DNA of 64,000 nt from a virus. Numbering within the stretch: the stretch's first letter is position 1; the number at the start of each line of letters is the position of its first letter. Positions 41,212 through 61,220 of the stretch are shown here, in pieces. Below the pieces are notes generated by a model. That model did no database searches. It was not told the DNA's origin and worked only from the letters and a program-made list of their open reading frames with translations. Made by a program: the position numbers and the translations under genes. Where the stretch lies: the IMG/VR virus record IMGVR_UViG_3300041583_000284, positions 1 through 64,000 of that record; one strand, 5' to 3'.

Positions 41212-42177
41212 TCCAGACCAGCGCCCTGTGTGTGCCCCATAGTACCGAAGCGGCACCGGGAACATACCCCGGTCAGCGATCCCGATGAACCGCGCGGTGC
41301 GCGTCTCTTCGAGGGTGGACTTGTTCCCAAGCCGCGCTGCAACGAGGGCCTGCACGTCAGGGTCGTCGTGCTCAAGCAGCGCCTTGAACTCCTCGTCGGT
41401 CTTGGCGAAGGCCCACGCTTCCTTGCCGGTGGTGGCGCTGACCTTGCGTGGGGGGTCCACGCCCATGTCCTGCAACAACCCTGCAAACTTATCGTTGGAC
41501 ATCAGGTCCTTCTTGTCCGCCCCCACGCGGTCCAGCAACGCCTGCTTGGCCCTGACAGTCTCGATCAGGTGGGCTTCCAGCTTGGGCTTGTTCAGTTGCA
41601 GCTGGGGTTCTGTGAACATGCGCAACGTCATGTCAATCAGCTGGAGTTCCTTTTTCGGGAACCCCCCGGGGATAGAGCCCATGAAGATGTTGAAGAGCTG
41701 ATAGCACAGGTCAGTGTCGTGCTTGCAGTATTTGCCGTAGGCTGCCAGCTCGGTAGGGGTGAAGTCTGCCCGCCGCATCCCCATCGCCCGCAGCACCTCG
41801 TCCCCCTTGGGCGGCAGGTTGTACCGCTTGGCGAGGGCTGCGAGGCCGTGCGATGCGTCGGGGCCATGAATGGCCCGTGACATAGACAACGTGTCCAGCC
41901 ACAACTTAGGCTTGATGCCTAAGCGCCACGCAAGGATCGCCCCGTCGAACAGGGTGTTGTGCGCGAGGATCGCAGCGTTTGACCAGTCGATGGTGTGCAG
42001 CGCCGCGTATATCTCGAGGATGTCGCCCGAGAGCCACTTGGCTTTCTTGCCATTCTTCTTGACGGACAGCCCGATAAGTTCAAACCGGGGGTCCCGCACG
42101 TATTCTTCCGTGGTGATCTTGGATAGGCTGTACTCCTTGGAGTAAAACGTCTCCGCGTCTATCGTATAAAGATCCAT
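40888..42177 (-). CDS. DNA polymerase I family, N-terminal half (3'-5' exonuclease + palm start) ending in an N-intein fragment
   Basis: AGGAGG RBS. Exo motifs (IDAETF.., NTLFDG). Extein ends ...YGAHTGRWSG, followed by CLVADTAVTVLD...GTEDHVVFT (Hint blocks A/B) and a stop. Confidence 0.85.
   Translation of the reverse strand: MDLYTIDAETFYSKEYSLSKITTEEYVRDPRFELIGLSVKKNGKKAKWLSGDILEIYAALHTIDWSNAAILAHNTLFDGAILAWRLGIKPKLWLDTLSMSRAIHGPDASHGLAALAKRYNLPPKGDEVLRAMGMRRADFTPTELAAYGKYCKHDTDLCYQLFNIFMGSIPGGFPKKELQLIDMTLRMFTEPQLQLNKPKLEAHLIETVRAKQALLDRVGADKKDLMSNDKFAGLLQDMGVDPPRKVSATTGKEAWAFAKTDEEFKALLEHDDPDVQALVAARLGNKSTLEETRTARFIGIADRGMFPVPLRYYGAHTGRWSGCLVADTAVTVLDTSGTMHEKKITDVMPDDLVWDGVAFVQHEGVVFSGFAEVIEWDGVRGTEDHVVFTDAGEIGLRDAMQGGHYLTSGGRPDPDAVDPNVHRRGRIKV
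41905..41923. repeat. variant palindrome CTTAGGC-TTGAT-GCCTAAG inside the DNA polymerase N-half CDS
   Basis: Read directly. Encodes RLGIKPK in frame. Both arms carry the same compensated change. Confidence 0.8.
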
Positions 42178-42223
42178 TAGTTATTCCTCCTAATCCAGTC
42201 TGCAAACAACTTCTAGTGAGCTG

Positions 42224-42706
42224 CTAGGGCACCTTTCTCCAGTAGCTGCCGAGGGCGCTTGCACGCTTCGACAAGATTAGATCAGCGCGCCTCCCCGCAG
42301 CCCACAGCGTTATGCCATGGCCGGGGGACTTGCCGACAGAGCCGTCGGGCCGCTCGAACTTCGGCTTGCCCAGCACCAACATCATCCCTTTGGCTCTCTT
42401 GGCGGCGTCTTGCCACCACGGGGCGCTTGTGCGGTCGGGCGTCAGTGCGATCCCGTTACCGTGCAGGAAGAACTTGTCTAGCCACGGCGAAAGCCCGTTG
42501 CGCCCCCCAAAGGGCGGGTTCATCCAAACAAAACCTTGCCATTGCGCGGTCAGGCTGTCCGAACTGATCCATCCTTTGCAGGGTACGTGTTGCGGCCCTT
42601 CCAGTGGGGCTGCAACGTCGAGGTCAAAAGTTACGCCCAAGGCGTCAAAGATATATTTTGGGGTATACCAATCGTCTGTTGCGCCGGGGGCTTCCCACGC
42701 GCTCAT
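42224..42706 (-). CDS. DNA N6-adenine methyltransferase (phage Dam-like)
   Basis: DDWYTPKYIFDALGVTFDLDVAAP ... FVWMNPPFGG (NPPF catalytic motif). Confidence 0.75.
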   Translation of the reverse strand: MSAWEAPGATDDWYTPKYIFDALGVTFDLDVAAPLEGPQHVPCKGWISSDSLTAQWQGFVWMNPPFGGRNGLSPWLDKFFLHGNGIALTPDRTSAPWWQDAAKRAKGMMLVLGKPKFERPDGSVGKSPGHGITLWAAGRRADLILSKRASALGSYWRKVP

Positions 42707-42855
42707 TGGTCACCCTCGTCGGCGTTCTTCTCCCGGCGCGCGAGAGCTTCGCCAACATCCCGATGGATGCGCGCGGCCATCAAAGCCGCGGCACCAACCA
42801 AGAAAAACAGCACGAGCCACAGGATTGAGGTGGCTACGTAGCCCAAGCACGCCAT
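42703..42855 (-). CDS. small membrane protein (50 aa)
   Basis: ATG at 42855 overlaps the upstream stop and its own stop overlaps the Dam start (ATGA). One TM segment (ILWLVLFFLVGAAALMAA). Below the track cutoff. Confidence 0.35.
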   Translation of the reverse strand: MACLGYVATSILWLVLFFLVGAAALMAARIHRDVGEALARREKNADEGDQ

Positions 42856-43388
42856 CACAGGAACTCGCCATGCTTGGCACTGATCGCGATCAAGTGCTCT
42901 GCCTGCGAGCGGGCGTCGTCCAGCGCGTTGTGGTGGGTGCCGCTGCGAGCCATCTTCACGTCAGGATACATACCCTTAACAGTGCGGTAGCACTTGTCTT
43001 TCCGGAACTCCCACATCGGCACGCCGCATCGCCTCCCCGACTCGCGCGTCAATACGTTGTCAAAAGGTGCCCCTTTGCCCCATACGCCTTTTAGGCTGTC
43101 ACCGTAGGCGCATACAAACTGCATAAAGTCGCGCAAAGCCACGTCAAGTCCAATGGCTTCGTCTTGGGCTTCGGTCAGTGCGTTGCGAGCACTGTCTCCT
43201 TGCCGCAGCCACCACATGACAGTGCTGGGGTCAATAACGGCACCTGAGCGCACGGCGCTGTGAAGCGACACAACGCGGTAGAACGTCTCGTCAGTCACGC
43301 CCATGGCGTTAAACGCCACGGCACCAATAGCCACGATTGGTGCATCCGGGCGAGTGCCCATGGTCTCTAGGTCAAGCATGATGTGCAT
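42855..43388 (-). CDS. DEDDh 3'-5' exonuclease (DnaQ-like)
   Basis: MLDLETMG (Exo I), the C-terminal HHNALDDARSQAEH (Exo III, H-x4-D). Confidence 0.7.
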   Translation of the reverse strand: MHIMLDLETMGTRPDAPIVAIGAVAFNAMGVTDETFYRVVSLHSAVRSGAVIDPSTVMWWLRQGDSARNALTEAQDEAIGLDVALRDFMQFVCAYGDSLKGVWGKGAPFDNVLTRESGRRCGVPMWEFRKDKCYRTVKGMYPDVKMARSGTHHNALDDARSQAEHLIAISAKHGEFL

Positions 43389-43684
43389 CAGTTTGTCTCC
43401 TCAATAAGCAGATAACAGGCTGCGAGGTAGACGATTGCCCCAAGCACCTCGGCCTGCGCGCGGGCGGGTTCCTTACGGCCCAGCATGCCAGAGGCTTCCT
43501 GTGTTTTCTTCATGGCTTGGCCGAGGGAGTACCCGGGCCCCACCATACGTCCGATCTCCATGATGGGTTGGCGGTCAAAGGGCTTGCCGTTGGCGTGGCG
43601 CTCCTTGCCTTTGCCTGCGGCCGCTTGGTTGTAGGCCGCGCCCAAGACGCGGCCCAGCCCTACGTAGTCGGGATTCTCAATCAT
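43388..43684 (-). CDS. hypothetical protein (98 aa), possibly DUF5664-like nucleotide pyrophosphohydrolase-associated domain
   Basis: GKGKERHA...W motif recalled from small phage proteins. Family label from memory only. Confidence 0.4.
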   Translation of the reverse strand: MIENPDYVGLGRVLGAAYNQAAAGKGKERHANGKPFDRQPIMEIGRMVGPGYSLGQAMKKTQEASGMLGRKEPARAQAEVLGAIVYLAACYLLIEETN

Positions 43685-43708
43685 GTGCTTTCTCCAGTGG
43701 GTTGTTGT

Positions 43709-46181: not shown

Positions 46182-46183
46182 TG

Positions 46184-47026: not shown

Positions 47027-47045
47027 CTTAGTCCCGAGGACTAAG
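47027..47045 (-). repeat. palindrome CTTAGTC-N5-GACTAAG
   Basis: Perfect arms, + strand loop CCGAG. 2 nt after the stop of 47048-47977 and 14 nt before ATG 47012. Confidence 0.9.
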
Positions 47046-47047
47046 TG

Positions 47048-47977
47048 TTACCAACCAAAGCCGGGCAGAGCTGCGATCGCTGCGTCCAGCTGCTTCTTTG
47101 TATCCGCCTTGTGGTAGGGGTCGTCCCGCAGAGCGAGGGCCGACGTGCCATTGAGGGTTTCGCTGAGGACACGCTGCATCCGCACCATGTCCGGGTCGTT
47201 GGTGATGTTGCACGTCTCCATCATGGCCACGAGGTCATGCGCCCGGTCAATCACGCTGTCGTAGATGCGCCGTGCCTTCTCCCCTTCCGCTGTCGGCTCC
47301 AGCTGCCGGGTCAGGGTGGTCAGGGTGTCGCGCAGCCGGGCCCAGATGTCGTCCATGGCGGACTTGATCTGCGTGTCGAAGTAGGAGGAATACTCCTTCT
47401 GCAAGGCTGCCTTGGCCTCGGCCTCCATATCCACACGCCAGTCGCCTGCATCAGGCAAGGGCACGAAGCTCATGCGGAACGCGAACTTGTCCCGGATGGA
47501 ATCGACCGTGGGGTATTCCTCGCGGTTGAACAGGGTGCCCAACTTGAGCTCGGAGGCGGAAATCTCCCAGCTGTATGCCTTGAGGAACGCGTTGGCCAAG
47601 CGGTGGAACTCGTCTTGCAGGGCCGTCATCTGCTTCTGGTACTTGAAGAACTGCGCCGTGGGGAGCAGGCGCAGGCCGAGGTCGGACCATGGCATGGTCA
47701 TGGACCGGTGCAAGCTACGCACATTCTCCGAGAACTTCTGCACAGCATCGAGCTCTGCGCAGTCGCCCAGCAGGTTCTTGTTGACGCTGGCCACACCCCG
47801 TGCAGCACCGCTGGAGCGGGTCACCGCCTCGGATGCCGTCTTGTCCCGCTTACGTGCCGTCCACACAGAGATGGACAGGTCCACCAGCATAGCCGCGCTG
47901 GACACCGACGGGGCACTCTGCCCGAAACCCGCAGGCAGCTGGATCGGGTTAGGCTTGTTTGTGATATTGATTGTCAT
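47048..47977 (-). CDS. DUF3150-like protein (309 aa)
   Basis: LVDLSISVWTARKRDK... and the overall layout recall the DUF3150 family that travels with AAA/VWA pairs. Label from memory only. Confidence 0.5.
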   Translation of the reverse strand: MTINITNKPNPIQLPAGFGQSAPSVSSAAMLVDLSISVWTARKRDKTASEAVTRSSGAARGVASVNKNLLGDCAELDAVQKFSENVRSLHRSMTMPWSDLGLRLLPTAQFFKYQKQMTALQDEFHRLANAFLKAYSWEISASELKLGTLFNREEYPTVDSIRDKFAFRMSFVPLPDAGDWRVDMEAEAKAALQKEYSSYFDTQIKSAMDDIWARLRDTLTTLTRQLEPTAEGEKARRIYDSVIDRAHDLVAMMETCNITNDPDMVRMQRVLSETLNGTSALALRDDPYHKADTKKQLDAAIAALPGFGW

Positions 47978-48207: not shown

Positions 48208-48229
48208 TCTTTTTCTCTCCTTGGTTGGA

Positions 48230-48248
48230 CTTAGTCGGGATGACTAAG
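48230..48248 (-). repeat. palindrome CTTAGTC-N5-GACTAAG
   Basis: Perfect arms, loop GGGAT. Follows a Gly-X gene and lies 22 nt before ATG 48207. Confidence 0.9.
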
Positions 48249-54030: not shown

Positions 54031-54049
54031 CTTAGTCGGGATGACTAAG
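54031..54049 (-). repeat. palindrome CTTAGTC-N5-GACTAAG
   Basis: Perfect arms, loop GGGAT. Follows a Gly-X gene and lies 22 nt before ATG 54008. Confidence 0.9.
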
Positions 54050-54241: not shown

Positions 54242-54480
54242 TGGCCACCTCCGTTCCCGTTTCCATAGCCGTCGCCGTCGCCGAAGCCGTAGCCGTAGCC
54301 ATCGCCGTTGCCGAAGCCATCGCCGTTGCCGTTGCCGAAGCCGTAGCCGAAGCCGTTGCCGAAGCCGTTGCCGAAGCCGTAGCCGTCGCCGGAGCCGTCG
54401 CCGGAGCCGTTGCCGAAGCCGTAGCCGCTACCGTAGCGGAACTTCGACCACACCAGCGGGCGGAGAAAGCCCCAGATCAT
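54238..54480 (-). CDS. Gly-X repeat microprotein, MIWxFLRPLVW family (80 aa)
   Basis: MIWGFLRPLVWSKFRYG + (GX)n, ending GGGQ. TAATG overlap with the 92-aa gene stop. Confidence 0.65.
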   Translation of the reverse strand: MIWGFLRPLVWSKFRYGSGYGFGNGSGDGSGDGYGFGNGFGNGFGYGFGNGNGDGFGNGDGYGYGFGDGDGYGNGNGGGQ

Positions 54481-54758
54481 TATGCCAGTGCTTCGATCCA
54501 TGCTGCGCTCTCATTCACAGGCAGGGCAAAGATGATGTGGATATTCGGCACCAAGATGAGAGGCGCCTTGGCGTCCAGCACGGTGTCTTTGGTCGGGCCG
54601 TCAAAGAGCTGGTTCAGCCCGTGTGCAGTGCCCCACTTGCGGATGGTGCGGGCATCGTAGAGTTCCACGAAGCCGTCGTTGCCACCCCGTGCCCGGCCGA
54701 CCATAACGTGGCCAGCAGTGATTACGAGGATCGCGAGAGTTGGTGTTCCAAAGTTCAT
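54480..54758 (-). CDS. hypothetical protein (92 aa)
   Basis: ATG at 54758, 24 nt downstream of palindrome 54783-54801, with a GGAG RBS. Confidence 0.55.
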   Translation of the reverse strand: MNFGTPTLAILVITAGHVMVGRARGGNDGFVELYDARTIRKWGTAHGLNQLFDGPTKDTVLDAKAPLILVPNIHIIFALPVNESAAWIEALA

Positions 54759-54782
54759 GGTAGTCTCCATAGGTTGTTGTAA

Positions 54783-54801
54783 CTTAGTCGGAATGACTAA
54801 G
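54783..54801 (-). repeat. palindrome CTTAGTC-N5-GACTAAG
   Basis: Perfect arms, loop GGAAT. Follows a Gly-X gene and lies 24 nt before ATG 54758. Confidence 0.9.
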
Positions 54802-55047
54802 TCAGTTGTAGCCGTCGCCGTAGCCGTCGCCGTCACCGTTGCCATAGTTGTAGCCGTCGCCAGTGCCGTCACCGTTGCCATAGTTGTAGCCGTCGCCGTC
54901 ACCGTTGCCATAGTTGTAGCCGTCGCCAGTGCCGTCACCGTTGCCATAGTTGTAGCCGTAGCCGTCGCCGTCACCGTTGCCATAGCCGTCGCCATTGCCG
55001 AAGCTGGACTTCGACCACACCAGCGGGCGGAGAAAGCCCCAGATCAT
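54802..55047 (-). CDS. Gly-X repeat microprotein, MIWxFLRPLVW family (81 aa, GYNYGNGDG variant)
   Basis: MIWGFLRPLVWSKSSFG + repeats. ATGA overlap with the 100-aa gene stop. TGA abuts palindrome 54783-54801. Confidence 0.65.
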   Translation of the reverse strand: MIWGFLRPLVWSKSSFGNGDGYGNGDGDGYGYNYGNGDGTGDGYNYGNGDGDGYNYGNGDGTGDGYNYGNGDGDGYGDGYN

Positions 55048-55346
55048 TTCAGTCTGGCGTGCATCACCTGCCACTCCTCCGGCCACAGCAGGGTCGGCAC
55101 ATCCTTCAGTGCGAAGACTTGCGGCTCTCCGTCCTCCACACGGATGCTGTATGTGGCACGGAGCCAAGGCTTGTGGTTGTGATAGGAGCCGCTGCCTGTC
55201 TCCGTGATCTGCATGGTGATCTTACCCTTGATCGACTTAGGCGGCATGCCTAAGAGGGTGGCGATCATGAACAGCTTCTTAAACTCTATGAAGGTTGCGA
55301 TCTGCTCGTGCAGGTTGGCGATTGCTTTGTCGATGATGTCGATCAT
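55044..55346 (-). CDS. hypothetical protein (100 aa)
   Basis: ATG ORF. Contains the variant palindrome 55236-55254 in frame (LLGMPPK). Confidence 0.55.
   Translation of the reverse strand: MIDIIDKAIANLHEQIATFIEFKKLFMIATLLGMPPKSIKGKITMQITETGSGSYHNHKPWLRATYSIRVEDGEPQVFALKDVPTLLWPEEWQVMHARLK
55236..55254. repeat. variant palindrome CTTAGGC-GGCAT-GCCTAAG inside a CDS
   Basis: Encodes LLGMPPK in frame within 55044-55346. Same compensated variant as 41905-41923. Confidence 0.8.
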
Positions 55347-55561
55347 AGCATCATCGCCCCAACAAGGGCGATCACCCCCAAGAGGGCAACCAGCACGATG
55401 GTGGCAGCCGCCAAGGCGTCACGCTGGTTGCCCGCAGGCTTCGCGGTCACTGATGCCAATTGTGCTACGATGCGGGCCCGTGCGGCGATGCGGGCGTCCG
55501 CTGCGGCCTTGTCGAGGATAGCCTCGATCGCCACGTCGATGTCAGATTTCGTTGTCATCAT
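55343..55561 (-). CDS. small C-terminally membrane-anchored protein (72 aa)
   Basis: ATG at 55561 with an AAGGAGA RBS. C-terminal TM segment (IVLVALLGVIALVGAMML). Confidence 0.5.
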   Translation of the reverse strand: MMTTKSDIDVAIEAILDKAAADARIAARARIVAQLASVTAKPAGNQRDALAAATIVLVALLGVIALVGAMML

Positions 55562-55832
55562 CGTCTCCTTCGTTGTTGTCTGGAAAGTACACCCACACCC
55601 AAGCGGATATGTAGATGCCCGGGTCCTCGCCGGGCGAGAGCAGCACCTCGTCGTCAAGCTCCACCTCGCCGTCCACGTGGTGTTGGTACCGCGCCATTTG
55701 GATAGCCTCGGCGTACTCGATCTGGTGGGCGTCGTGCTGGGCGAGCCAATCTCTGGCGGCGCTGACTGCTTTCATCAAGTCGTCGGCATCTGATGCTACC
55801 GTGATGTTGCGCAGGATTTGCAGGACCATCAT
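55542..55832 (-). CDS. hypothetical acidic protein (96 aa)
   Basis: ATG at 55832 with an AAAGGAGAAG RBS, 22 nt downstream of degenerate palindrome 55855-55873. Confidence 0.55.
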   Translation of the reverse strand: MMVLQILRNITVASDADDLMKAVSAARDWLAQHDAHQIEYAEAIQMARYQHHVDGEVELDDEVLLSPGEDPGIYISAWVWVYFPDNNEGDDDDNEI

Positions 55833-55850
55833 CGTCTTCTCCTTTGTTGT

Positions 55851-56357
55851 TTAACTTAGTCGTTGTGACCGAGTGGTTTTCCATGGGGCTTTGCCCGCGA
55901 TCACGCGGCGGACTGCAGCGGCCGCTTGTGCCGGGCTGCACGGGTCTGGGGCCAGCACGGCGTCGAACAGCGGATGCCCCTTGTGCACCGCCATTTCGCT
56001 CTCGTGCAGATTGCGGCTGAGGCCGAGGAACCCCAAGGCGGCGTCTCTTGTGGCTGCCCAGTCGCCTTCCGTGTCCTTCAGCAAGGCCTGCTGCCGCTTG
56101 AGGGATGGGAAAATCTCCCCCGGCTCTGCGACAGACATGAGGTGTGCGGCCCCTGCGATGCAGCAAACGGTGCCACAGTCAGGCTTCAGCATCTCGTCCG
56201 TGCGCCGCAACAGGCTGCCCAAGGTGCTGCAATCGCCGGTGGCGTCGGCCACTCCGTCGTCCGTGGCGGCGCAGATACCCAGCTCCATGTTGAAATAGGC
56301 ATGTGGTGCGCCGGCCTCGAGCCACTCGGCGAGCTGTGTCAGGTGTGGGATATGCAT
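55851..56357 (-). CDS. hypothetical protein (168 aa)
   Basis: ATG 23 nt downstream of palindrome 56381-56399. Its last codons (TRSQRLS) are encoded by the degenerate palindrome. Confidence 0.55.
   Translation of the reverse strand: MHIPHLTQLAEWLEAGAPHAYFNMELGICAATDDGVADATGDCSTLGSLLRRTDEMLKPDCGTVCCIAGAAHLMSVAEPGEIFPSLKRQQALLKDTEGDWAATRDAALGFLGLSRNLHESEMAVHKGHPLFDAVLAPDPCSPAQAAAAVRRVIAGKAPWKTTRSQRLS
55855..55873 (-). repeat. degenerate palindrome CTTAGTC-GTTGT-GACCGAG
   Basis: Two mismatches in the right arm. Overlaps the 3' end of 55851-56357 and lies 22 nt before ATG 55832. Confidence 0.6.
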
Positions 56358-56380
56358 CGTCTTGTTCCTTTCTTGGTTGA

Positions 56381-56399
56381 CTTAGTCGTTGTGACTAAG
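56381..56399 (-). repeat. palindrome CTTAGTC-N5-GACTAAG
   Basis: Perfect arms, loop GTTGT. Contains the TAG stop of 56395-56628 and lies 23 nt before ATG 56357. Confidence 0.9.
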
Positions 56400-56628
56400 T
56401 GGTGTAAGTATGGGCCTCGGGCCGCCCAGCTTCTTGGTCAGCAGCCCACTTGTCATGCAGGTCGTTGTGCTGGACGAGTGCAGTGGCCTCGTCAGGGGCT
56501 TCCTGCCAGACATAGGCGTCGGCGTCGTCCACAATTGCCCGGCCAGCAGGCGTGGCGAAGGTTGCCTCAGTCATGCAGGCTGGCTCGAAGGCGTTGTCGC
56601 TGTGTTCGTAGGTGCAGTATCTTGGCAT
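56395..56628 (-). CDS. hypothetical protein (77 aa)
   Basis: ATG 23 nt downstream of palindrome 56652-56670. Its TAG stop lies inside palindrome 56381-56399. Confidence 0.55.
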   Translation of the reverse strand: MPRYCTYEHSDNAFEPACMTEATFATPAGRAIVDDADAYVWQEAPDEATALVQHNDLHDKWAADQEAGRPEAHTYTT

Positions 56629-56651
56629 TGTCTTGTTCCTTTCTCGGTTGA

Positions 56652-56670
56652 CTTAGTCGTTGGGACTAAG
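56652..56670 (-). repeat. palindrome CTTAGTC-N5-GACTAAG
   Basis: Perfect arms, loop GTTGG. Contains the TAG stop of 56666-56956 and lies 23 nt before ATG 56628. Confidence 0.9.
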
Positions 56671-56956
56671 AGTGAAAGCCAAAGTGGCCATTGCTCTCGT
56701 CGGCTCTGGCGGAGTCTGGGTGCCACACGGCACAGATCTGGTAAGCGATCGGCCCCAGCGGGTCTGCACGATAGGTAGCTGTGATTTCGAGGCTGTCGGC
56801 GGACGCATGACCAATCAACTCAGCATAAGCATACTGAGCGGAGCTGCTGGCCCACTGGGACAGATAGCCAATGGCTTGGTGCATGTCGTCGCGTCCAGTA
56901 ACAGACTCAATCTTTGTGAGGGTGTCCGGCTCGATGTTCAGATGCGTGGTTCTCAT
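56666..56956 (-). CDS. hypothetical protein (96 aa)
   Basis: ATG 24 nt downstream of palindrome 56981-56999. Its TAG stop lies inside palindrome 56652-56670. Confidence 0.55.
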   Translation of the reverse strand: MRTTHLNIEPDTLTKIESVTGRDDMHQAIGYLSQWASSSAQYAYAELIGHASADSLEITATYRADPLGPIAYQICAVWHPDSARADESNGHFGFHS

Positions 56957-56980
56957 TTGGTTGGTTCCTTCTGTTGTTGA

Positions 56981-56999
56981 CTTAGTTGTTGTGACTAAG
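56981..56999 (-). repeat. palindrome CTTAGTT-GTTGT-GACTAAG (one mismatch)
   Basis: Contains the TAG stop of 56995-57420 and lies 24 nt before ATG 56956. Confidence 0.8.
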
Positions 57000-57420
57000 C
57001 AGGGCGTGCGTCGCCCTGCGGGATCGGTGCAGCGAGGGCCTGCATGATGGCAAGGTAGTGCTCATCCACGATGGTGTGGCACAGTTGCTCCTTCTGCTCC
57101 TTCGACAGGCCCTTGAGGTGCTTCAGGTGCTTGGCCTTTTGCTTATCGAACACAGCTCGGGCGTCGGCGAGATCCTCTTCTGTATGACGCCACGGCAACG
57201 GGGTGCACCACTGGGTGTGCAACGGGGTGTGCCACACCATCGTGTGGTGCAGTTGTTCCCTCGACATGCGCTTGAGGCGCTTGAGATGCTTGGCCTTTTG
57301 CTCCTCGAACACAGCTCGGGCGTCGGCGAGATCCTCTTCTGTATGACGCTGGGGGAAGATCAGCGTGCAGCGCGCGTTTTCGTACCGTGCGGCGGCGGCG
57401 GCCTTGCGGACTTTGGGCAT
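56995..57420 (-). CDS. hypothetical protein with internal tandem duplication (141 aa)
   Basis: ATG at 57420, 21 nt downstream of palindrome 57442-57460. RHTEEDLADARAVF(E/D)(E/K)QKAKHLK(R/H)LK occurs twice. Confidence 0.55.
   Translation of the reverse strand: MPKVRKAAAAARYENARCTLIFPQRHTEEDLADARAVFEEQKAKHLKRLKRMSREQLHHTMVWHTPLHTQWCTPLPWRHTEEDLADARAVFDKQKAKHLKHLKGLSKEQKEQLCHTIVDEHYLAIMQALAAPIPQGDARPA
57071..57349 (-). repeat. internal duplication (about 110-120 nt x2) within 56995-57420
   Basis: 57130-57190 and 57289-57349 are nearly identical. The flanks diverge, with a 9-nt indel. Confidence 0.8.
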
Positions 57421-57441
57421 CGTCTTGTTCCTTTCGGTTGA

Positions 57442-57460
57442 CTTAGTTGTTGTGACTAAG
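57442..57460 (-). repeat. palindrome CTTAGTT-GTTGT-GACTAAG (one mismatch)
   Basis: Contains the TAG stop of 57456-57716 and lies 21 nt before ATG 57420. Confidence 0.8.
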
Positions 57461-57716
57461 CGCTTGTTGCAAACATAACTGTCACGTCGTGGCAATCGCA
57501 CGGCAGGACACCGTATTCGGCGGCGTCATGGTAACGTGCGAAGTGAGACTGCTCGGCGGCATCGGCGTAGGTCAGCGGGCCAAACTCCATCACCATGTCT
57601 GTTTCCCAGCGGGTGAAGGCGCGTGCCTCATTGTCGTCGAGGCCTGTCGTGTCGCCGTTGATGCACGCAGGCAGCCAGTGGGTCGGCAGTGCGAGGGTGA
57701 GTCGGTCGAATGTCAT
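57456..57716 (-). CDS. hypothetical protein (86 aa)
   Basis: ATG at 57716 with a GAAGGAA RBS. Its TAG stop lies inside palindrome 57442-57460. Confidence 0.5.
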   Translation of the reverse strand: MTFDRLTLALPTHWLPACINGDTTGLDDNEARAFTRWETDMVMEFGPLTYADAAEQSHFARYHDAAEYGVLPCDCHDVTVMFATSA

Positions 57717-57735
57717 GGTGTGGTTCCTTCTGTTG

Positions 57736-57939
57736 TTAGATTTGAAAATCAGCGACGACGCCGTTTTTTTGGCACTGGGGGCAGATGCAGCTTGCATACT
57801 CATCCCAGTCGCTGTCCCAGTTGGGCAGTTTCTTGTCGTCTGTATCGAAGCCATCGGCGTCGTACCTGCCCCACACACTAGCAGTGATGTGGAAGGCCTT
57901 GTTCTGGCCACAGTTGGGGCACTTCATGTCTTCCAGCAT
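57736..57939 (-). CDS. four-Cys zinc-ribbon protein (67 aa), first gene of the leftward early operon
   Basis: ATG at 57939, 21 nt downstream of palindrome 57961-57979. CPNC ... CPQC. Confidence 0.55.
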   Translation of the reverse strand: MLEDMKCPNCGQNKAFHITASVWGRYDADGFDTDDKKLPNWDSDWDEYASCICPQCQKNGVVADFQI

Positions 57940-57960
57940 AGTGCGGTTCCTTTCGGTTGA

Positions 57961-57979
57961 CTTAGTTGTTGTGACTAAG
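57961..57979 (-). repeat. palindrome CTTAGTT-GTTGT-GACTAAG (one mismatch)
   Basis: 21 nt before ATG 57939, the first early gene. Its right flank GCAGGGCG..CGCCC is homologous to the flank of 56981-56999. Confidence 0.8.
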
Positions 57980-58278: not shown

Positions 58279-58297
58279 CTTAGTCGGGGGGACTAAG
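58279..58297. repeat. palindrome CTTAGTC-N5-GACTAAG in non-coding leader
   Basis: Perfect arms, loop GGGGG. Confidence 0.9.
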
Positions 58298-58381: not shown

Positions 58382-58400
58382 CTTAGTCGCAAGGACTAAG
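58382..58400. repeat. palindrome CTTAGTC-N5-GACTAAG in non-coding leader
   Basis: Perfect arms, loop GCAAG. Directly left of the 10-bp stem hairpin at 58402-58436. Confidence 0.9.
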
Positions 58401-58470: not shown

Positions 58471-58647
58471 GCAGTTTGTTCTAGAAGTGGGCATGTTTGT
58501 TTAGGAAGGTTTCGTGGTTTCTGATGGTGGGAGATGGCACACTTTTGTTAATGCTATGCTGTGTCTGTCGGTTTAGTGGTGGGAGGTGGCGGGGTGTGAG
58601 AACTGGCATTGGTGGGCAGTGTTGGGGAGTGTGAGGTTTGTGGGGGG

Positions 58648-58666
58648 CTTAGTCGTCGGGACTAAG
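58648..58666. repeat. palindrome CTTAGTC-N5-GACTAAG in the G+T-skewed block
   Basis: Perfect arms, loop GTCGG. Confidence 0.9.
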
Positions 58667-58870
58667 TGGCAATGGATGGTATGAAAACAGAACTGCTACC
58701 CTGTGTCTGTCGGTTTAGACGTATATGGTGGTATGGGAACAGAACTGCTACCCTGTGTCCCAAAGTTTGGTGGTGTATGGTGGTTTATGCATGTATCTGC
58801 TGAGGGTTTTTCGGCGGTTTCGGATGGGGTCGGTATATGGTAGCATATGGTTGTAAGGGGTGGTATATGG

Positions 58871-59299
58871 GTAATGTTCTTATTGTCTTAGTAATGTTCT
58901 TAAAAATATATATATATAACAATGTCTTGCGGGAATGTAACAATGTTCCTGCTTGAAGGGTACTCAGCTACATTTTTTTGTGTTGTGCACGGAACATTGG
59001 TAAAACGGACCGCTTTTGCCAGAATCGCGTTTTCTAAATCCTACCCTACCCTTCAAAACGCGGAACATTACAACATTACTGCAATATCAATGACTTAGGG
59101 GGAACATTGGGTCGGAACATTACAAACTGGCAAAATCGCTAAGTCATTGATATATAACGAATTGCAATGTTCCTGCAAAAGGCCAACTTCACTATAACTC
59201 ACAGTCCCAGAGAGTTTAGTTATATAATATCTATTGACAAAAATACGCAGACTGTGACAAGTAGTGAAGTTGGCCGATTTTGGCCAAATCTGGAACATT
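58871..59299. promoter_or_regulatory. AT-rich block with GGAACATT iterons
   Basis: GGAACATT at 58991, 59062, 59101, 59114 and 59292 (+). Reverse copies at 58942-58949 and 59166-59173. Near copies GTAATGTTCT at 58871 and 58891. (TA)n at 58906-58917. An isolated TTGACA at 59234 and TATAAT at 59223, not properly spaced. Confidence 0.5.
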
Positions 59300-59316
59300 A
59301 CAAAAAGGGGCTAAAA

Positions 59317-59625
59317 ATGGCTACTGAGCGAGACCTCGACCGCGCGCAGGCAATCCACAATTACGGTAGAAACTGCTACTTTTGTGCAGCTGGCCCTCTG
59401 GAGCGACGCGCTTTATTCCTGAAACCCCTCGGGCCCAACAACACCAACGTGCCTATGTGCAAAACGTGTTGCCATGCCGTCGATACAGGCGTGTCGCTGC
59501 GTCCCATCCTGCTCGCGCACTTGAAGCGTGGTCGTGCACTTGAAGCTGTCGCCAGTCTGCGCCTGACCGAATACGGCTGGGCCACACCGCGCAGACCCGA
59601 GCACCTACTTAGTCACGAGGACTAA
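59317..59625 (+). CDS. small Zn-finger protein, paralogue 1 (102 aa)
   Basis: ATG at 59317 with an AAAGGGG RBS. MATERDLDRAQAIHNYGRNCYFCAAG...MCKTCC. Its TAA stop lies inside palindrome 59608-59626. Confidence 0.55.
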   Translation: MATERDLDRAQAIHNYGRNCYFCAAGPLERRALFLKPLGPNNTNVPMCKTCCHAVDTGVSLRPILLAHLKRGRALEAVASLRLTEYGWATPRRPEHLLSHED

Positions 59626-59688
59626 GTCCCGCCCCGGCCAAAGCCGCGGGGTTCCGAAGTCCCGTCGCTGTTGGAGAACTGGCTTCCG
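59608..59688 (+). repeat. 81-nt repeat unit copy 1 (starts with palindrome CTTAGTC-ACGAG-GACTAAG)
   Basis: CTTAGTCACGAGGACTAAGTCCCGCCCCGGCCAAAGCCGCGGGGTTCCGAAGTCCCGTCGCTGTTGGAGAACTGG.... Lies between the two Zn-finger genes. Confidence 0.9.
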
Positions 59689-59705
59689 TTTTGAAAGGAC
59701 ACAAC

Positions 59706-60014
59706 ATGGCTACTCAGAGAGATATTGACCGCGGGCTTGCGCAGCGCAGGTATGGCAAAAGCTGCTACTGTTGCGGGAAAGGCCCGCTGTCGGGGCACGG
59801 ACTGTTCTTGGCGCCTATTGGCTACACCGAGTACGCAAACACTGCCCACCCGCTTGCCCCCGTGTGCGCCTCGTGCCGCACAGCGCTCAAAACTGTCCCG
59901 ACCCTCCGCCACATTGAGAACCTGCGTAGGGACCTGCGTAAGTGTCTGGTGACCACGCGGCGCTGGGCGGACGAGATCCACGGACTGGACTTTGCTTACC
60001 TCAGTGAGAACTGA
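59706..60014 (+). CDS. small Zn-finger protein, paralogue 2 (102 aa)
   Basis: ATG at 59706 with a GAAAGGA RBS. MATQRDIDRGLAQRRYGKSCYCCGKG...VCASCR. Confidence 0.55.
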   Translation: MATQRDIDRGLAQRRYGKSCYCCGKGPLSGHGLFLAPIGYTEYANTAHPLAPVCASCRTALKTVPTLRHIENLRRDLRKCLVTTRRWADEIHGLDFAYLSEN

Positions 60015-60018
60015 CCCG

Positions 60019-60099
60019 CTTAGTCACGAGGACTAAGTCCCGCCCCGGCCAAAGCCGCGGGGTTCCGAAGTCCCGTCGCTGCTGGAGAACTGGTTTCTG
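60019..60099 (+). repeat. 81-nt repeat unit copy 2
   Basis: Near-identical to copy 1. Starts 5 nt after the stop of 59706-60014. Confidence 0.9.
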
Positions 60100-60104
60100 G
60101 CCCG

Positions 60105-60185
60105 CTTAGTCACGAGGACTAAGTCCCGCCCCGGCCAAAGCCGCGGGGTTCCGAAGTCCCGTCGCTGTTGGAGAACTGGTTTCCG
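60105..60185 (+). repeat. 81-nt repeat unit copy 3
   Basis: In tandem with copy 2 (86-nt period). Followed by GAAAGGAAAG but no ORF, then the terminators. Confidence 0.9.
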
Positions 60186-60197
60186 AAAGGAAAGCAC

Positions 60198-60229
60198 AAA
60201 AAAGCCCCCGAACCTTGCGGCGCGGGGGT
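60198..60229 (-). terminator. rho-independent terminator 2 (tandem)
   Basis: On the - strand: CCCCCG-N12-CGGGGG followed by CT6. The loop shares CCGCAAGGTT with terminator 1. Confidence 0.65.
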
Positions 60230-60242
60230 AAACGGCGGGCAC

Positions 60243-60274
60243 AAAAAAAACCCCGTAACCTTGCGGCTACGGGG
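60243..60274 (-). terminator. rho-independent terminator 1 of the 275-aa gene
   Basis: On the - strand: CCCCGTA-N10-TACGGGG followed by T8. 10 nt after the stop. Confidence 0.8.
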
Positions 60275-60284
60275 TTGATCTAGA

Positions 60285-61112
60285 TTACTTGATATCGGCG
60301 GGGTTCTGTTTCGCCGTCTGGCCCTTCACAGGCGCGGGACTCTTGCTAGCCTTTACTTTTGTTGCAAGGGGCTTGGGCTTCCGGTCAATCTTGGCGCTTG
60401 CCTTGTCAGCGGCCAGAACCGCGTCATAGGCGGCAAGGCACAACCGCGCCAAGTTTTGTTTTTCCTTCACAGGTGACAAGGCAAGCAAGGCAAGCTCGCA
60501 AAGACGCAAGTAAGCGGGCGCATCGACGTGGGGCGGTATCTGTTCGCCCTTGCCATTAGTCGCGGCAAGTGCCGTTGCCATTGCTTTCATTGGCGCACCC
60601 ATTGCGTCGATAGCGCGTTGATCAATTGGCGCTTTGCGATTTGGGGCTTTCGTTCCATCCGCCGCGATAGGCGCGGCATTGTCCGCTTTGGTTTGCGCGA
60701 TTGCTTTGGCAATCCGGTCCGTGATGCGACCGAACACCTTTCCCTTTTGCATCTGCCAATAGAGCCGCGTATTGCTTGCCATGCCTTTCTTGGGCGCGCC
60801 GATCATATCCTTTGCGCCCTTGCCATTGTTCACCTTATCGGTGAACACCTTACCCCAAGCCTCCACGACCGCCGCGTCCTTCAAGATGATATAGGCGTTC
60901 CTTTCCTCTACACTTGCATCCTTGTCGCGTGATGTAGCAGTAAGGCAACGGGCAGACCCGAACGTGGCCACGGCGGCATCGTGTACGGCCATTGCCGCTG
61001 CCATTGCAATCACGCTGGCCGTTGCTTCCCTATCCAAGGCACGAATGGCCAAGGGGATAGTGGACAAGATAAGGTCTAGATTCGGGCGGGGGCTATTTGT
61101 TTCGATTTTCAT
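60285..61112 (-). CDS. hypothetical protein (275 aa), isolated lower-GC gene
   Basis: ATG ORF on the opposite strand to its neighbours. Ala/Lys-rich. Followed by two tandem terminators. Codon third positions are visibly less GC-rich than in the rest of the genome. Confidence 0.6.
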   Translation of the reverse strand: MKIETNSPRPNLDLILSTIPLAIRALDREATASVIAMAAAMAVHDAAVATFGSARCLTATSRDKDASVEERNAYIILKDAAVVEAWGKVFTDKVNNGKGAKDMIGAPKKGMASNTRLYWQMQKGKVFGRITDRIAKAIAQTKADNAAPIAADGTKAPNRKAPIDQRAIDAMGAPMKAMATALAATNGKGEQIPPHVDAPAYLRLCELALLALSPVKEKQNLARLCLAAYDAVLAADKASAKIDRKPKPLATKVKASKSPAPVKGQTAKQNPADIK

Positions 61113-61201
61113 TGTGTAGTCTACTTTCTGTTAAGGTTATATGGCAGGCTTTCCCTGTCCACATCTTACTTATAGGACAGAGTAGAACCAATAACAATAG
61201 A

Positions 61202-61220
61202 CTTAGACCCAAGGACTAAG
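61202..61220. repeat. palindrome CTTAGAC-CCAAG-GACTAAG (one mismatch)
   Basis: Lies in the intergenic region between the 275-aa gene start and the rightward packaging operon. Confidence 0.7.

Follow-up and report, generated by a model that had tools for sequence, protein, structure and literature searches.

A hairpin-forming repeat between the early and middle genes of an uncultured phage

The window analysed here, 64,000 nucleotides of one strand, comprises positions 1 to 64,000 of the virus record IMGVR_UViG_3300041583_000284 and belongs to an uncultured phage in which a 19-base, hairpin-forming repeat is sited between early and middle genes. The pattern CTTAGTC-N5-GACTAAG has 16 exact matches in the window and none in 100 dinucleotide-preserving shuffles; with up to two mismatches there are 23 matches (shuffle mean 0.07), and a limit of three adds one doubtful site at 52427. 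These scans confirmed an earlier, sequence-only reading that had counted at least 23 copies, 16 with perfect arms, confined to 41.9-61.2 kb: the copies span 41905-61220, and a search of positions 1-41904 with up to three mismatches found none. The stem is 7 bp long, or up to 9 bp when its flanks are counted; folded as RNA, the element has an energy of -5 to -11.5 kcal/mol. A T-run was sought after the hairpin and was absent from every copy, as that reading had also noted, and canonical bidirectional intrinsic terminators with T-runs are present elsewhere in the window, at 60198-60276. When 185,579 bacterial and archaeal genomes were scanned with the pattern, only 60 scattered single matches were found, indicating that the repeat is not host-derived.

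Thirteen copies (57961, 57442, 56981, 56652, 56381, 55855, 54783, 54031, 52148, 50952, 49513, 48230 and 47027) share one - strand intercistronic order, namely stop codon, hairpin, conserved leader with a ribosome-binding site, and ATG; this layout had been proposed before and held copy by copy. The leader T(C)CAACC(A/G)A(A)AGGA lies behind most of them on the - strand, and the cassette of hairpin plus leader, roughly 45 nt, recurs through the region. The ATG lies 21-24 nt past the hairpin; at 47027 the distance is the 14 nt already described, and at 54783 an additional ATG was found. Of the 15 copies tested between 47027 and 57961, 13 have an ATG at 21-24 nt. The hairpin at 57961-57979 stands before the zinc-ribbon gene 57939-57736, the first of the early genes (ATG at 21 nt), and, like the one at 57442-57460 (ATG at 21 nt), shares the variant form of the copy at 56981-56999 (ATG at 24 nt), whose closing pair is mismatched, C.A when read on the sense strand and G.T on the + strand. 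At 56652-56670 (loop CCAAC) and 56381-56399 (loop ACAAC) the ATG follows at 23 nt. As claimed earlier, four genes end on the TAG that the left arm supplies (57716-57456, 57420-56995, 56956-56666 and 56628-56395). A degenerate hairpin, CTCGGTC/GACTAAG, occupies 55855-55873 at the 3' end of gene 56357-55851, which reads through it and stops directly past it (next ATG at 22 nt).

Six genes termed Gly-X have a TGA or TAA that abuts the hairpin arm, again in agreement with the earlier description. Hairpins behind Gly-X genes lie at 54783-54801 (ATGs at 12 and 24 nt), 52148-52166 (ATG at 24 nt), 50952-50970 (DUF2201 gene next, ATG at 23 nt), 49513-49531 (loop AUUCC; ATG at 24 nt) and 48230-48248 (sense loop AUCCC; ATG at 22 nt). 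The - strand copy at 54031-54049 stands 5' of the gene for the AAA_5 ATPase, whose ATG lies at 22 nt, and that at 47027-47045 begins 2 nt after the stop of the DUF3150 gene.

Three further - strand copies lie within open reading frames: 41905-41923 in the DNA polymerase exonuclease ORF (encoding LGIKPK; conserved in the relative L001), 49882-49900 in the DUF2201 ORF (NLVASTK) and 55236-55254 in ORF 55346-55044 (LLGMPPK). The first and last carry CTTAGGC/GCCTAAG, the symmetric variant recognised before; it occurs twice, and its location inside ORFs is new. A non-coding leader of about 0.9 kb holds - strand hairpins at 58279-58297 (without start-codon coupling), 58382-58400 and 58648-58666. The three + oriented copies reported at 59.6-60.1 kb exist, but as parts of a 97-nt repeat, to whose units no strand is assigned. 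In unit 1 (59608-59704) the hairpin at 59608-59626 overlaps the TAA that ends the + strand gene 59317-59625, and the unit also contains a second GC hairpin and, in - strand reading, the motif CCAGTTCTC; the hairpin of unit 2 (60019-60115; hairpin 60019-60037) lies 4 nt past the stop of the + strand gene 59706-60014; unit 3 (60105-60201; hairpin 60105-60123) adjoins the bidirectional terminators. These copies can be assigned either to the + strand zinc-finger genes, as hairpins next to their stops, or to the - strand, as units there. The most upstream hairpin (61202-61220, - strand) has one T.T mismatch, with the family-conserved motif GGTGGGGTCGCG (61262-61251) before it and a sigma70-like sequence, TTGTTA-17-TATAAG as read by eye, after it. 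Loop classes sort by region as originally described: GGGAT or GGAAT at 48.2-54.8 kb, GTTGT or GTTGG at 55.9-58.0 kb, unique loops in the 58.3-58.7 kb leader and ACGAG at 59.6-60.1 kb.

Related phages carry their own hairpins at equivalent positions

The window was compared with 62 related loci and the cultured Rhizobium phage RHph_TM27A. In nearly every comparison sequence a short hairpin of its own is over-represented in the same gene region, and one hairpin family with 6-nt arms exceeds every shuffle in 60 of the 63 family sequences. Lineage examples are GTTAGTG-N3-CACTAAC, GTTATACG-N3-CGTATAAC, GGTAGTG-N3-CACTACC and GTTACC-N5/6-GGTAAC. Lineages share the stem base (G)TTA...TAA(C), which as GUUA...UAAC nearly always includes a stop codon, while the inner stem covaries: at least 15 distinct arm sequences were found among the relatives, every one self-complementary. 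Two pair types occur at one stem position in the window (T-A/G-C), in L016 (A-T/G-C) and in L013 (C-G/T-A, paired in all eight copies), and in the L005 orthologue of copy 49882 both arms are changed (CTTGGTC/GACCAAG) with pairing kept. Loops measure 3, 4 or 5 nt by lineage, and L014/L019 and RHph_TM27A each have two frequent loop lengths within one genome; the gap between the conserved outer half-sites is not fixed, shifting by 1-2 bp from lineage to lineage and by 1 bp inside single genomes.

On the sense strand, a Shine-Dalgarno sequence, ATG and ORF follow 6-34 nt past 162 of 439 unique family hairpins (37%), against 3.9% at random positions, and on the antisense strand only 5 of the 439 show such coupling. 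In 121 of 436 hairpins examined, an upstream ORF of 60 codons or more has its stop inside the hairpin or no more than 12 nt before it. Most relatives have a hairpin of their own sequence upstream of the AAA_5 gene, the position of window copy 54031, with AAA_5 identity among loci dropping to 44%, and the virion modules of most are hairpin-free; the association with gene starts and with one genome region, asserted from the window, holds. The DUF927 protein of RHph_TM27A is only about 26% identical, yet the stem base GTTA...TAAC is kept. In this phage the equivalent hairpin occurs genome-wide, every 0.3-2.5 kb across the replication block, and precedes starts in sense orientation in both strand blocks; its right arm AGGTAA seems to provide the Shine-Dalgarno sequence in several copies, and the copy at 12719 sits between convergent stop codons, where a promoter is not needed. 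The element is therefore a trait of a whole phage family, lineage-specific in sequence. Since each relative has its own version in the same places, it is a conserved gene-boundary signal that would most likely act in messenger RNA.

The hairpin as possible punctuation of polycistronic messenger RNA

Canonical terminators and a sigma70-like sequence, with no phage RNA polymerase found, lead us to expect long operons transcribed by the host enzyme. We tentatively favour an element that would act in RNA as intercistronic punctuation and insulator and double as a recombination linker. The stem-loop would be transcribed within long early and middle polycistronic mRNAs, on or directly past the stop codon of one translation unit, with 1-25 nt left between its end and the next unit's Shine-Dalgarno sequence. 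We infer roles in stability, insulation and translation: the hairpin would shield the upstream mRNA segment from 3' exonucleases, insulate the downstream ribosome-binding site from sequence upstream and could modulate re-initiation. A trans-acting reader, either a hairpin-specific RNA-binding protein or an endoribonuclease, may take part without being required; no RNA-binding protein or nuclease was identified as such a reader.

Several observations count against action in RNA. In imperfect copies A.C mismatches outnumber G.U on the sense strand (15:4 and 15:6 in two counts, both confounded by an A/C-rich sense strand and non-independent copies), so that the wobble-compatible strand would be the antisense or template strand. 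A conserved stem with a variable loop is commoner in DNA-hairpin than in RNA-hairpin recognition. Some copies inside long conserved ORFs sit at conserved positions in several lineages (AAA_5 near residue 141, DUF2201 near residue 180), and there, as at 41905, 49882 and 55236, ribosomes would melt RNA hairpins. Finally, control-region hairpins lie directly behind intrinsic terminators and a G is conserved 12-14 nt from their centres, an arrangement that resembles N4-like hairpin promoters.

The last point bears on an unlikely alternative, in which the hairpins are template-strand DNA promoters as in N4-like phages (Schitoviridae), extruded for recognition by an RNA polymerase specific to the phage. 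Transcripts would begin some 13-14 nt away from the centre of the hairpin, with short leaders bearing Shine-Dalgarno sequences or, in RHph_TM27A, as leaderless mRNAs, and the two loop classes would be early and middle promoter classes. The geometry resembles that of LUZ7, whose early promoters have a stem of at least 4 bp and a 3-nt loop, whose middle promoters have a stem of at least 6 bp and a 3-4-nt loop, and whose early transcripts start at a G located 13-14 nt from the centre of the hairpin (PMC9163698). In all lineages two to four tandem units, each a hairpin followed by G(+12..14)AWR-CCAGTTCYY, open the early region beyond the gene-1 terminator; hairpins and genes share one orientation, the hairpins are restricted to the early/middle region, G.T wobbles fall on the template strand, and N4 likewise mixes conserved with freely covarying stem positions (PMC4496689). 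The family also has modules in common with N4-like phages, which supply the nearest cultured-phage matches to the AAA_5 ATPase (about 24% identity), and the giant virion protein has, in its N-terminal part, a weak match to the N4 vRNAP phrog. However, neither Pfam or PHROG scans, which covered the larger ORFs of the window and those of the early/middle region, nor a PDB sequence search with the giant protein detected an RNA polymerase, and the 10 kb flanking the AAA_5 gene on each side contain no conserved candidate gene. The centre of the giant protein is Ala/Pro-rich with a zincin HEMTH motif; a low-confidence model (mean pLDDT 55) makes it largely helical, and its sole fold hints are non-significant matches to anthrax lethal factor. 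Moreover, N4 extrusion requires specific loop and closing-pair bases and the loops here vary, the conserved G is missing from gene-proximal copies, a genome has 23-34 copies against 3-13 known hairpin promoters in N4 and LUZ7, and one RHph_TM27A copy lies between convergent stops.

Less probable still are single-stranded-DNA priming or loading sites for the DUF927/SaPI-Rep-like primase-helicase, comparable to plasmid ssi signals or G4-type origins and intergenic only because gaps are free to carry hairpins. Lineage-specific stems on a conserved base would fit co-evolution with a phage enzyme, the helicase part of the 969-aa protein resembles the SaPI Rep helicase, some copies are accommodated inside long replication genes by rare codons such as TTA for Leu, and the control region is origin-like, with tandem repeats adjoining an AT-rich stretch. 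The genome-wide copies of RHph_TM27A and their spacing across its replication block agree with this, but the hairpins span only about a third of the genome in most relatives and in the lineage of the window, and flanks and spacing track the sense strand and start codons even in the oppositely transcribed blocks of RHph_TM27A. Pseudomonas phage Rollin has a DUF927 homologue (30% identity), and no such hairpin family was found in the half of its genome examined.

It is comparably improbable that the palindromes are double-stranded operators at which a dimeric phage regulator switches early and middle genes, the first option of the sequence-only reading. The arms are perfectly symmetric and highly uniform within a genome, the window encodes small HTH and zinc-finger proteins, and such an operator role was proposed for TGTTCGGNNNCCGAACA, the 17-bp repeats of Cluster O phages (PMC4351075). 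Against it, half-site spacing differs both from lineage to lineage (1-2 bp) and among the copies of a single genome (1 bp), inner positions change in sequence and stay complementary, and loops and flanks track the transcribed strand; a covarying inner stem and a variable loop length favour a folded single strand over a rigid dimeric DNA operator. The earlier choice between a DNA-binding site and a hairpin accordingly shifts to the hairpin. The zinc-finger, zinc-ribbon and HTH proteins proposed as regulators are not conserved across the family, and the early and middle genes may form a regulon.

The cassettes as possible sites of recombination

When the window is aligned with L001, blocks terminate at hairpin cassettes (57957; 56965/56961), window positions 56626-55869 are missing from L001 with both ends within cassettes, and some insertion/deletion endpoints between close relatives coincide with hairpins. 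Being repeated across the region, the cassette offers homology for recombination, which would keep copies within a genome alike and make cassettes breakpoints in gain and loss of the hypervariable early genes; comparable repeat-mediated deletions have been reported for Cluster O repeats and T4 PeSLs (PMC4351075, PMC2839356). That the repeats are nothing more than recombination linkers or selfish elements, homogenised by gene conversion and tolerated at gene boundaries, has little likelihood: such endpoints of indels and replacements, copies homogeneous within a genome and different between lineages, and the analogy to PeSL-mediated shuffling (PMC2839356, PMC4122927) speak for it, but the GTTA...TAAC stem base is kept in very divergent lineages including RHph_TM27A, the positions before the AAA_5 gene and inside DUF2201 are kept despite complete turnover of arm sequence, and strict pairing is maintained, which together point to selection on the structure itself.

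A hairpin repeat occupies stop-start junctions in the early and middle region

The window is a near-complete single genome and comes from an uncultured podovirus-like phage (about 60% GC). Its portal protein shares ~40% identity with the portals of phage DSL-LC04, Planktothrix phage Pag-Yong1, Pelagibacter phage HTVC023P and Caulobacter phage RW, and a near-identity search of INPHARED with the hairpin region returned no match and no nucleotide-level relative. Virion genes occupy 1-32 kb on the + strand. The - strand at 32-61 kb holds the replication and early genes, among them a DUF927/SaPI-Rep-like helicase, an SNF2 helicase, exonucleases, an HNH-split DNA polymerase, a VRR-NUC nuclease, DUF3150 and DUF2201/VWA proteins, an AAA_5 ATPase and numerous small ORFs. 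A leftward terminase gene probably lies at ~62.7-64.0 kb. The full genome seems to be about 64.2 kb and circularly permuted, with the window covering almost exactly one copy of it: in L127, a related locus with a 100% identical portal, the hairpins lie 3.9-5.3 kb upstream of the portal gene, which corresponds to 59.6-61.2 kb of the window if the sequence wraps to 815.

The palindrome CTTAGTC-N5-GACTAAG is overrepresented in the window, with 16 exact matches and none in 100 dinucleotide-preserving shuffles. The sequence-only reading had claimed at least 23 copies, and 23 matches were recovered at up to two mismatches (shuffle mean 0.07); permitting three mismatches added one doubtful site. Every copy lies within 41905-61220, so the regional confinement proposed by that reading is borne out, as is its stop-hairpin-leader-ATG layout when the - strand, the coding strand there, is read. 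The TAG in the left arm is the stop codon of four early genes, the arm is abutted by TGA or TAA in six Gly-X genes (small genes ending in Gly-dipeptide tails), the leader T(C)CAACC(A/G)A(A)AGGA is conserved downstream of the hairpin, and ATG follows the hairpin by 21-24 nt in 13 of the 15 copies tested (47027-57961). Intrinsic (Rho-independent) terminators, which combine a GC-rich stem-loop with a U/T-run, had already been discounted by the sequence-only reading and were rejected here, as a T-run is absent after all 23 copies; two canonical T-run terminators are found in the window at 60198-60276. The predicted stability of the hairpin RNA ranges from -5 to -11.5 kcal/mol, and the folding energies of the two strands are so close (-8.3 versus -8.9 kcal/mol) that they are uninformative on strand.

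Related phages carry hairpin families of their own

A pattern scan found the same palindrome in four IMG/VR contigs, and a protein-guided scan with the AAA_5 ATPase yielded 64 loci (numbered with L) from phages of ~58-67 kb, with protein identities of 44-97%. When perfect short hairpins were counted de novo, a hairpin family of the lineage's own proved over-represented in the early/middle region of practically every lineage, and the top family exceeded all 30 shuffles in 60 of 63 sequences, typically with 5-19 copies against 1-2. The family CTTAGTC-N5-GACTAAG is shared by the window and L001. The others are TGTTAGTG-N3/4-CACTAACA (L007, L014, L017, L019, L029, L039), GTTAGGC-N3-GCCTAAC (L026, L031, L037, L040 and others), GTTAGGG-N3/4-CCCTAAC (L008, L021, L035, L046), GTTATACG-N3-CGTATAAC (L016, L041, L042, L045), TTATGC-N5-GCATAA (L020, L052, L058), GGTAGTG-N3-CACTACC (L024, L027, L043, L047, L054, L055), TTAGGGA-N3-TCCCTAA (L049-L051), TTCGGGC-N4-GCCCGAA (L059), GTTAAA-N4-TTTAAC (L063, L064) and GTCAGGGA-N3-TCCCTGAC (L006). 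In portal-centred loci of further relatives, hairpin families were found only in the few kb upstream of the portal gene, which correspond to the early region, and none was found in the structural module.

The cultured Rhizobium phage RHph_TM27A (MN988461.1) has its replication genes in the same order as the window, and its own family, (G)TTACC(T)-N4-6-(A)GGTAA(C), numbers 34 copies, most of them at gene junctions. These copies are densest in the early/replication block and present elsewhere too, and one separates two convergent genes, lying precisely between their stop codons. Pseudomonas phage Rollin also encodes the DUF927 protein (30% identity); a hairpin family of this kind is absent from the examined half of its genome. 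The hairpins matched no Rfam family at gathering or permissive thresholds, and the searchable literature checked on related phages does not mention them.

The element changes in pairs and is coupled to starts on the sense strand

All arm variants across lineages are self-complementary, and differences in the inner stem are paired changes. At one stem position L013 has C-G in four copies and T-A in four, so that 8/8 copies are paired; at one position the window has T-A in 19 and G-C in two, and at one position L016 has A-T in six and G-C in two. The L005 orthologue of the intragenic copy at 49882 reads CTTGGTC...GACCAAG, with both arms altered through synonymous codon changes. A MAFFT alignment of representative hairpins placed gaps in the 3' arm and was unusable for pair counting, and an alignment pair test is circular for sequences picked as palindromic; shuffle-based enrichment was therefore used. 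The pooled excess of pairing is modest (140/194 paired against a within-genome shuffle mean of 126.5 and maximum of 141). Judged from the paired substitutions, the element folds.

The stem base (G)TTA[G/T]...[C/A]TAA(C) persists across very deep divergence and nearly always includes a stop codon. A tally of stop positions for the upstream ORFs is noisy owing to long spurious open frames in GC-rich sequence. Most lineages have their own hairpin directly upstream of the RBS of the AAA_5 gene, and several have lineage-specific hairpins at matching internal positions of the AAA_5 and DUF2201 ORFs. Hairpin positions were tabulated relative to start codons, as the sequence-only reading had suggested, with start coupling defined as an SD and an ATG that opens an ORF of 40 codons or more, 6-34 nt from the hairpin. 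Such a start follows on the sense strand in 162 of the 439 non-redundant family hairpins (37%), against 3.9% at random, and on the antisense strand in only five of the 439. RHph_TM27A shows start coupling in both of its oppositely transcribed blocks; the hairpin ends 2-20 nt before the ATG, so that in several copies the SD is formed by the loop or the right arm (AGGAGGTAA), the arm sequence AGGTAA apparently serving as SD. An in-frame ATG also lies 21 nt after each of the three intragenic copies in the window, but it carries little weight since this Met is kept in the DNA polymerase family irrespective of the hairpin and is common in DUF2201.

The cassettes, each a hairpin with its RBS leader, also coincide with sites of gene gain and loss. 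The small genes that separate hairpins show no conservation across the phage family. Breakpoints were taken from main-diagonal alignment blocks between the window and L001, which are 90-97% identical, and these blocks stop at the cassettes at 57957 and 56965/56961. L001 has an extra 287 nt at 56965/56961 and is missing window positions 56626-55869, both ends of which lie in cassettes. Other indels end in repeated Gly-X genes.

A tentatively favoured RNA-level role for the hairpin

Among the readings considered, we tentatively favour an RNA-level role as the most likely one. In long host-RNAP transcripts the hairpin would form an intercistronic stem-loop that closes a translation unit, with the stop codon in or beside the stem; it would shield the 3' side of the upstream segment and give the next RBS a standard, insulated context. 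The repeated 45-nt cassette could additionally serve as a recombination linker, a function proposed for the PeSLs of T4-type phages (PMC2839356, PMC4122927). An RNA-level role would account for the stop/start adjacency, the sense orientation, the copy at the convergent junction, the SD arms of RHph_TM27A and the indel endpoints, and it requires no undiscovered enzyme. Several observations speak against it: stems are conserved and loops variable, some copies are selected within ORFs through rare TTA codons, some control-region copies stand directly after terminators, and A.C mismatches exceed G.U on the sense strand, a weak antisense-pointing signal that is confounded by strand composition. The conserved DUF3150 protein was considered as a reader of the hairpin and set aside; its model is helical (mean pLDDT 76), and the PDB holds neither a fold nor a sequence match to it.

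The control region and the question of N4-like hairpin promoters

Read leftward from ~61.3 kb, the control region comprises a GGTGGGGTCGCG motif (61251-61262, - strand) ~30 nt upstream of the most upstream hairpin (61202-61220), that hairpin, a sigma70-like TTGTTA-17-TATAAG assigned by eye and a 275-aa gene. Two terminators follow, then three hairpin-bearing 97-nt repeat units and lastly an AT-rich stretch rich in AATGTTC repeats and a 0.9-kb leader with three more hairpins. The GGTGGGGTCGCG motif recurs as GGT(G/A)GGGT... at the equivalent site in many relatives, and RHph_TM27A has a motif of this type beside its hairpin at 45685. The motif and first hairpin are followed by 'gene 1', which is fast-evolving, encodes 180-280 aa and is conserved in position, and then by strong terminators; the 'gene 1' proteins of several lineages gave no Pfam hits and are barely alignable. 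The motif CCAGTTCTC occurs on the - strand at 60179, 60093, 59682 and 58606 (within 58598-60179). It belongs to a family-conserved motif, GAWR-CCAGTTCYY-nn-AGCAGC, that is present in nearly all loci from L005 to L066; two to four tandem units head the early region downstream of the first-gene terminator, usually with a hairpin 8-12 nt upstream of the motif, and several relatives have one further copy ahead of the VRR-NUC gene. The motif could be a promoter/initial transcribed sequence, an origin iteron or a structured RNA. The AT-rich stretch at ~58900-59320 (52% GC in the 2-kb interval around it versus about 60% overall) holds at least eight AATGTTC/GAACATT repeats, and relatives have this repeat in their control regions too; taken with the SaPI-Rep-like helicase (32183-35092), the stretch looks like an iteron-type origin or a divergent early promoter/operator region.

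The most interesting rival explanation, which we regard as unlikely, is that the hairpins are template-strand hairpin promoters like those of N4. In LUZ7 both early and middle promoters are hairpins, and the start is a G lying 13-14 nt from the centre of the hairpin (PMC9163698). In every lineage the two to four tandem units that head the early region downstream of the gene-1 terminator combine a hairpin with G(+12..14)AWR-CCAGTTCYY. N4-like promoters start transcription 11-14 nt downstream of the hairpin centre, and here a conserved G at +12-14 is restricted to these control-region units. Further likenesses to the hairpin promoters of N4 vRNAP and LUZ7 are short stems with, in most relatives, 3-4-nt loops (PMC4496689, PMC9163698), stem positions that are part conserved and part free to covary, location in the early and middle regions and co-orientation with genes. 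The N4-like phages are also distant kin of this family in gene content, both having the ATPase and a domain like the N-terminus of vRNAP. In the window that domain belongs to a 2130-aa virion protein (25497-31889, + strand) with the look of a 'vRNAP without the RNAP': its N-terminal part bears a weak likeness to the corresponding domain of N4-type virion RNA polymerases, and after it come an Ala/Pro-rich linker, a zincin HEMTH motif, an LPD39 domain and a DarB-like C-terminus.

It is the polymerase and the extrusion rules that weigh against N4-like promoters. Pfam, PHROGs and PDB sequence/profile searches of the scanned ORFs gave no hits to an RNAP (vRNAP or RNAPII gp15/gp16), although a very divergent phage RNAP may be present. 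The centre of the giant virion protein is Ala/Pro-rich, contains the zincin and has no polymerase domain; its residues 690-1440 were modelled by AlphaFold with a mean pLDDT of 55, and Foldseek returned only non-significant zincin-like hits and no RNAP fold. RNAP motifs are likewise absent from this protein. The N4 hairpin requires a central purine and a G:C closing pair for extrusion and vRNAP contact (PMC4496689), whereas the hairpins here do not follow these loop and closing-pair rules and their loops vary freely within and between genomes, with a central purine on the template strand in 15/23 window copies by hand count. Stem and loop lengths point neither way: N4-like hairpins have stems of 4-7 bp and 3-nt loops; the window hairpins have 7-bp stems and 5-nt loops, becoming triloops only if a + strand G.T pair is counted, and most relatives have 6-8-bp stems and 3-4-nt loops. 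N4-like phages also have far fewer hairpin copies, and one RHph_TM27A copy lies between convergent genes. In its broader form, in which the hairpins would be single-stranded promoters or primer start sites on the template strand for an unrecognised phage polymerase, this explanation seems to us improbable; it would concern a large group of environmental podoviruses, distantly related to N4-like phages, in which the vRNAP domain was lost or never present. If true, hairpin-directed initiation would be far wider and more modular (20-35 sites per genome) than the few sites of Schitoviridae suggest, and a new polymerase or specificity factor would await discovery.

Weaker alternatives and rejected classes

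The sequence-only reading had interpreted the repeat as the site of either a dimeric DNA-binding regulator or a factor acting on an RNA hairpin. The hairpin part of this proposal stands and the dimeric site does not fare well, because the spacing of the half-sites differs: the distance from GTTA to TAAC is 9-11 nt across lineages, with a 1-nt difference among copies within L014/L019 and within RHph_TM27A, each of which has two loop lengths at similar frequency. By this comparison the element is not a rigid duplex operator, and we consider a dimeric DNA operator very unlikely. The trans-acting factor and the early/middle 'regulon' put forward in the same reading are unproven. A replication-priming signal for the DUF927/SaPI-Rep-like protein has, in our estimate, only a slim chance of being the explanation, and it is highly improbable that the hairpins are a purely selfish or recombinational repeat.

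Integron attC sites have RYYYAAC...GTTRRRY cores at the ends of a 57-141-nt imperfect hairpin and are used with an IntI integrase. The GTTAGGC/GCCTAAC of some relatives resembles these cores, but in the opposite order, GTT forming the stem base of the 5' arm, and the element is 17-21 nt long and perfectly paired; polarity and length rule out attC, and no integrase was found among the scanned ORFs. The lambda-type nut boxB has a conserved loop that is read by N protein and occurs once per early operon, whereas here the loops vary, the stems are conserved and 23 copies are present. REP/BIME elements are short, imperfectly conserved palindromes at gene boundaries or inside operons that stabilise upstream mRNA and promote rearrangements. 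They are host-chromosome elements mobilised by RAYT transposases, and no bacterial genome repeats this palindrome: across 185,579 bacterial/archaeal genomes, its A- and T-flanked form was matched only 60 times, always as an isolated single hit and in taxa unrelated to one another, with no genome holding several copies.

Comparison with known phage repeats

The 17-bp repeats 5'-TGTTCGGNNNCCGAACA of Cluster O mycobacteriophages are closest in form, and PeSLs are closest in evolutionary behaviour. The Cluster O repeats have 7-nt inverted arms with a short variable centre, and occur in more than 30 near-identical copies per genome. Many lie in the narrow spaces between genes of one long operon, about one third lie inside ORFs, and deletions between copies are seen; they were reported to lack close linkage to start codons, a dimeric DNA-binding protein was suggested for them and their function is unassigned (PMC4351075). 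Their sequence is strikingly similar in form to TGTTAGG-N3-CCTAACA of several relatives here. Taken as a descriptive class, in which a 7-N3/5-7 palindrome has more than 20-30 near-identical copies in each genome, Cluster O-type repeats agree with the window hairpins in copy number, in intergenic and intragenic placement and in lying in one long operon. The match is in form only and, being an analogy, implies no homology: Cluster O phages are siphoviruses of Actinobacteria that are unrelated to this family, and the element here is adjacent to stops and starts on the sense strand, varies in loop length and has been tracked over more than 60 diverged lineages with covarying stems.

T4-type PeSLs (promoter-early plus stem-loop) are short conserved intergenic cassettes with a stem-loop that flank small variable early genes and are points of homologous exchange and indels (PMC2839356, PMC4122927). 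The window cassettes likewise flank variable ORFs and mark indel or replacement endpoints, but a PeSL combines a sigma70 early promoter with a stem-loop that is a terminator. The cassettes here have no -35/-10 or other promoter-like site and no U-tract, and their conserved downstream part is an RBS leader, so they were not classed as PeSLs.

In the start-associated sequences (SAS/ESAS) of Cluster K mycobacteriophages, ESAS are inverted repeats upstream of SAS. The likeness to these elements, which are mentioned in PMC4351075, is that repeated motifs are tightly tied to the translation starts of a subset of genes; SAS, however, is an asymmetric 13-nt motif overlapping the RBS, whereas the conserved unit here is the hairpin, and the phages are unrelated.

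Short palindromic repeats at gene boundaries, specific to phages, already form a known class. What is new is that the hairpin is conserved throughout the family with its stem completely turned over, that the order of stop, hairpin and RBS is strict, and that a link to N4-type hairpins is possible. The value is comparative: a whole family of abundant uncultured phages, sampled by more than 60 IMG/VR loci and the cultured RHph_TM27A, keeps a short hairpin at early/middle gene boundaries, and its stem sequence has been fully replaced over evolution while hairpin and position were kept, a natural covariation experiment on a phage expression signal for which Rfam and the literature searched describe no counterpart. 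The hairpin marks early/middle regions and points of gene-cassette exchange in metagenomic phage genomes and gives a testable link or contrast with N4-like hairpin promoters, and the compact 'stop, hairpin, RBS' cassette may serve as a natural insulator or part for polycistronic expression. Since RHph_TM27A and its Rhizobium host are cultured, this phage is a tractable system in which the RNA-versus-DNA question can be tested directly.

Other features of the window

Nine paralogous small genes lie at 48249-55047 on the - strand, with starts at 55047, 54480, 54241, 52259, 51368, 51195, 49672, 48655 and 48482. Their products share the N-terminus MIW(T/G/L)F(L/A)RPLVW(S/A)xxRYG, in which the differences between paralogues look mostly synonymous by eye, followed by a Gly-(Tyr/Phe/Asp/Asn/His) dipeptide tail of 15-65 residues. 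Without exception these genes close a unit, singly or several together, right before the next hairpin. Their sole database match was a sub-threshold Pfam TrAA12 repeat. Gly-rich repeat ORFs are found beside hairpins in relatives too.

The DNA polymerase A gene (39344-42177, - strand) is divided between two ORFs, one for the exonuclease/N-terminal part (40888-42177) and one for the C-terminal part (39344-40297), and an HNH endonuclease ORF (40278-41024) overlaps the junction. In the virion-gene region, a match to the Rfam Mu-gpT-DE RNA (RF03012; 8536-8588, + strand; 52.5 bits versus a gathering threshold of 49) lies directly downstream of a DUF723 homing-endonuclease ORF (6936-8471). The ORF at 52256-52891 gave weak helix-turn-helix hits and has a Cys-rich N-terminus, and the gene at 57420-56995 contains a 96-nt internal duplication of 91% identity (57095-57349). 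Within the DUF2201 gene, positions 50369-50464 hold six in-register 36-nt copies at a 12-nt step, four of them identical, which encode a Gly/Glu/Gln linker.
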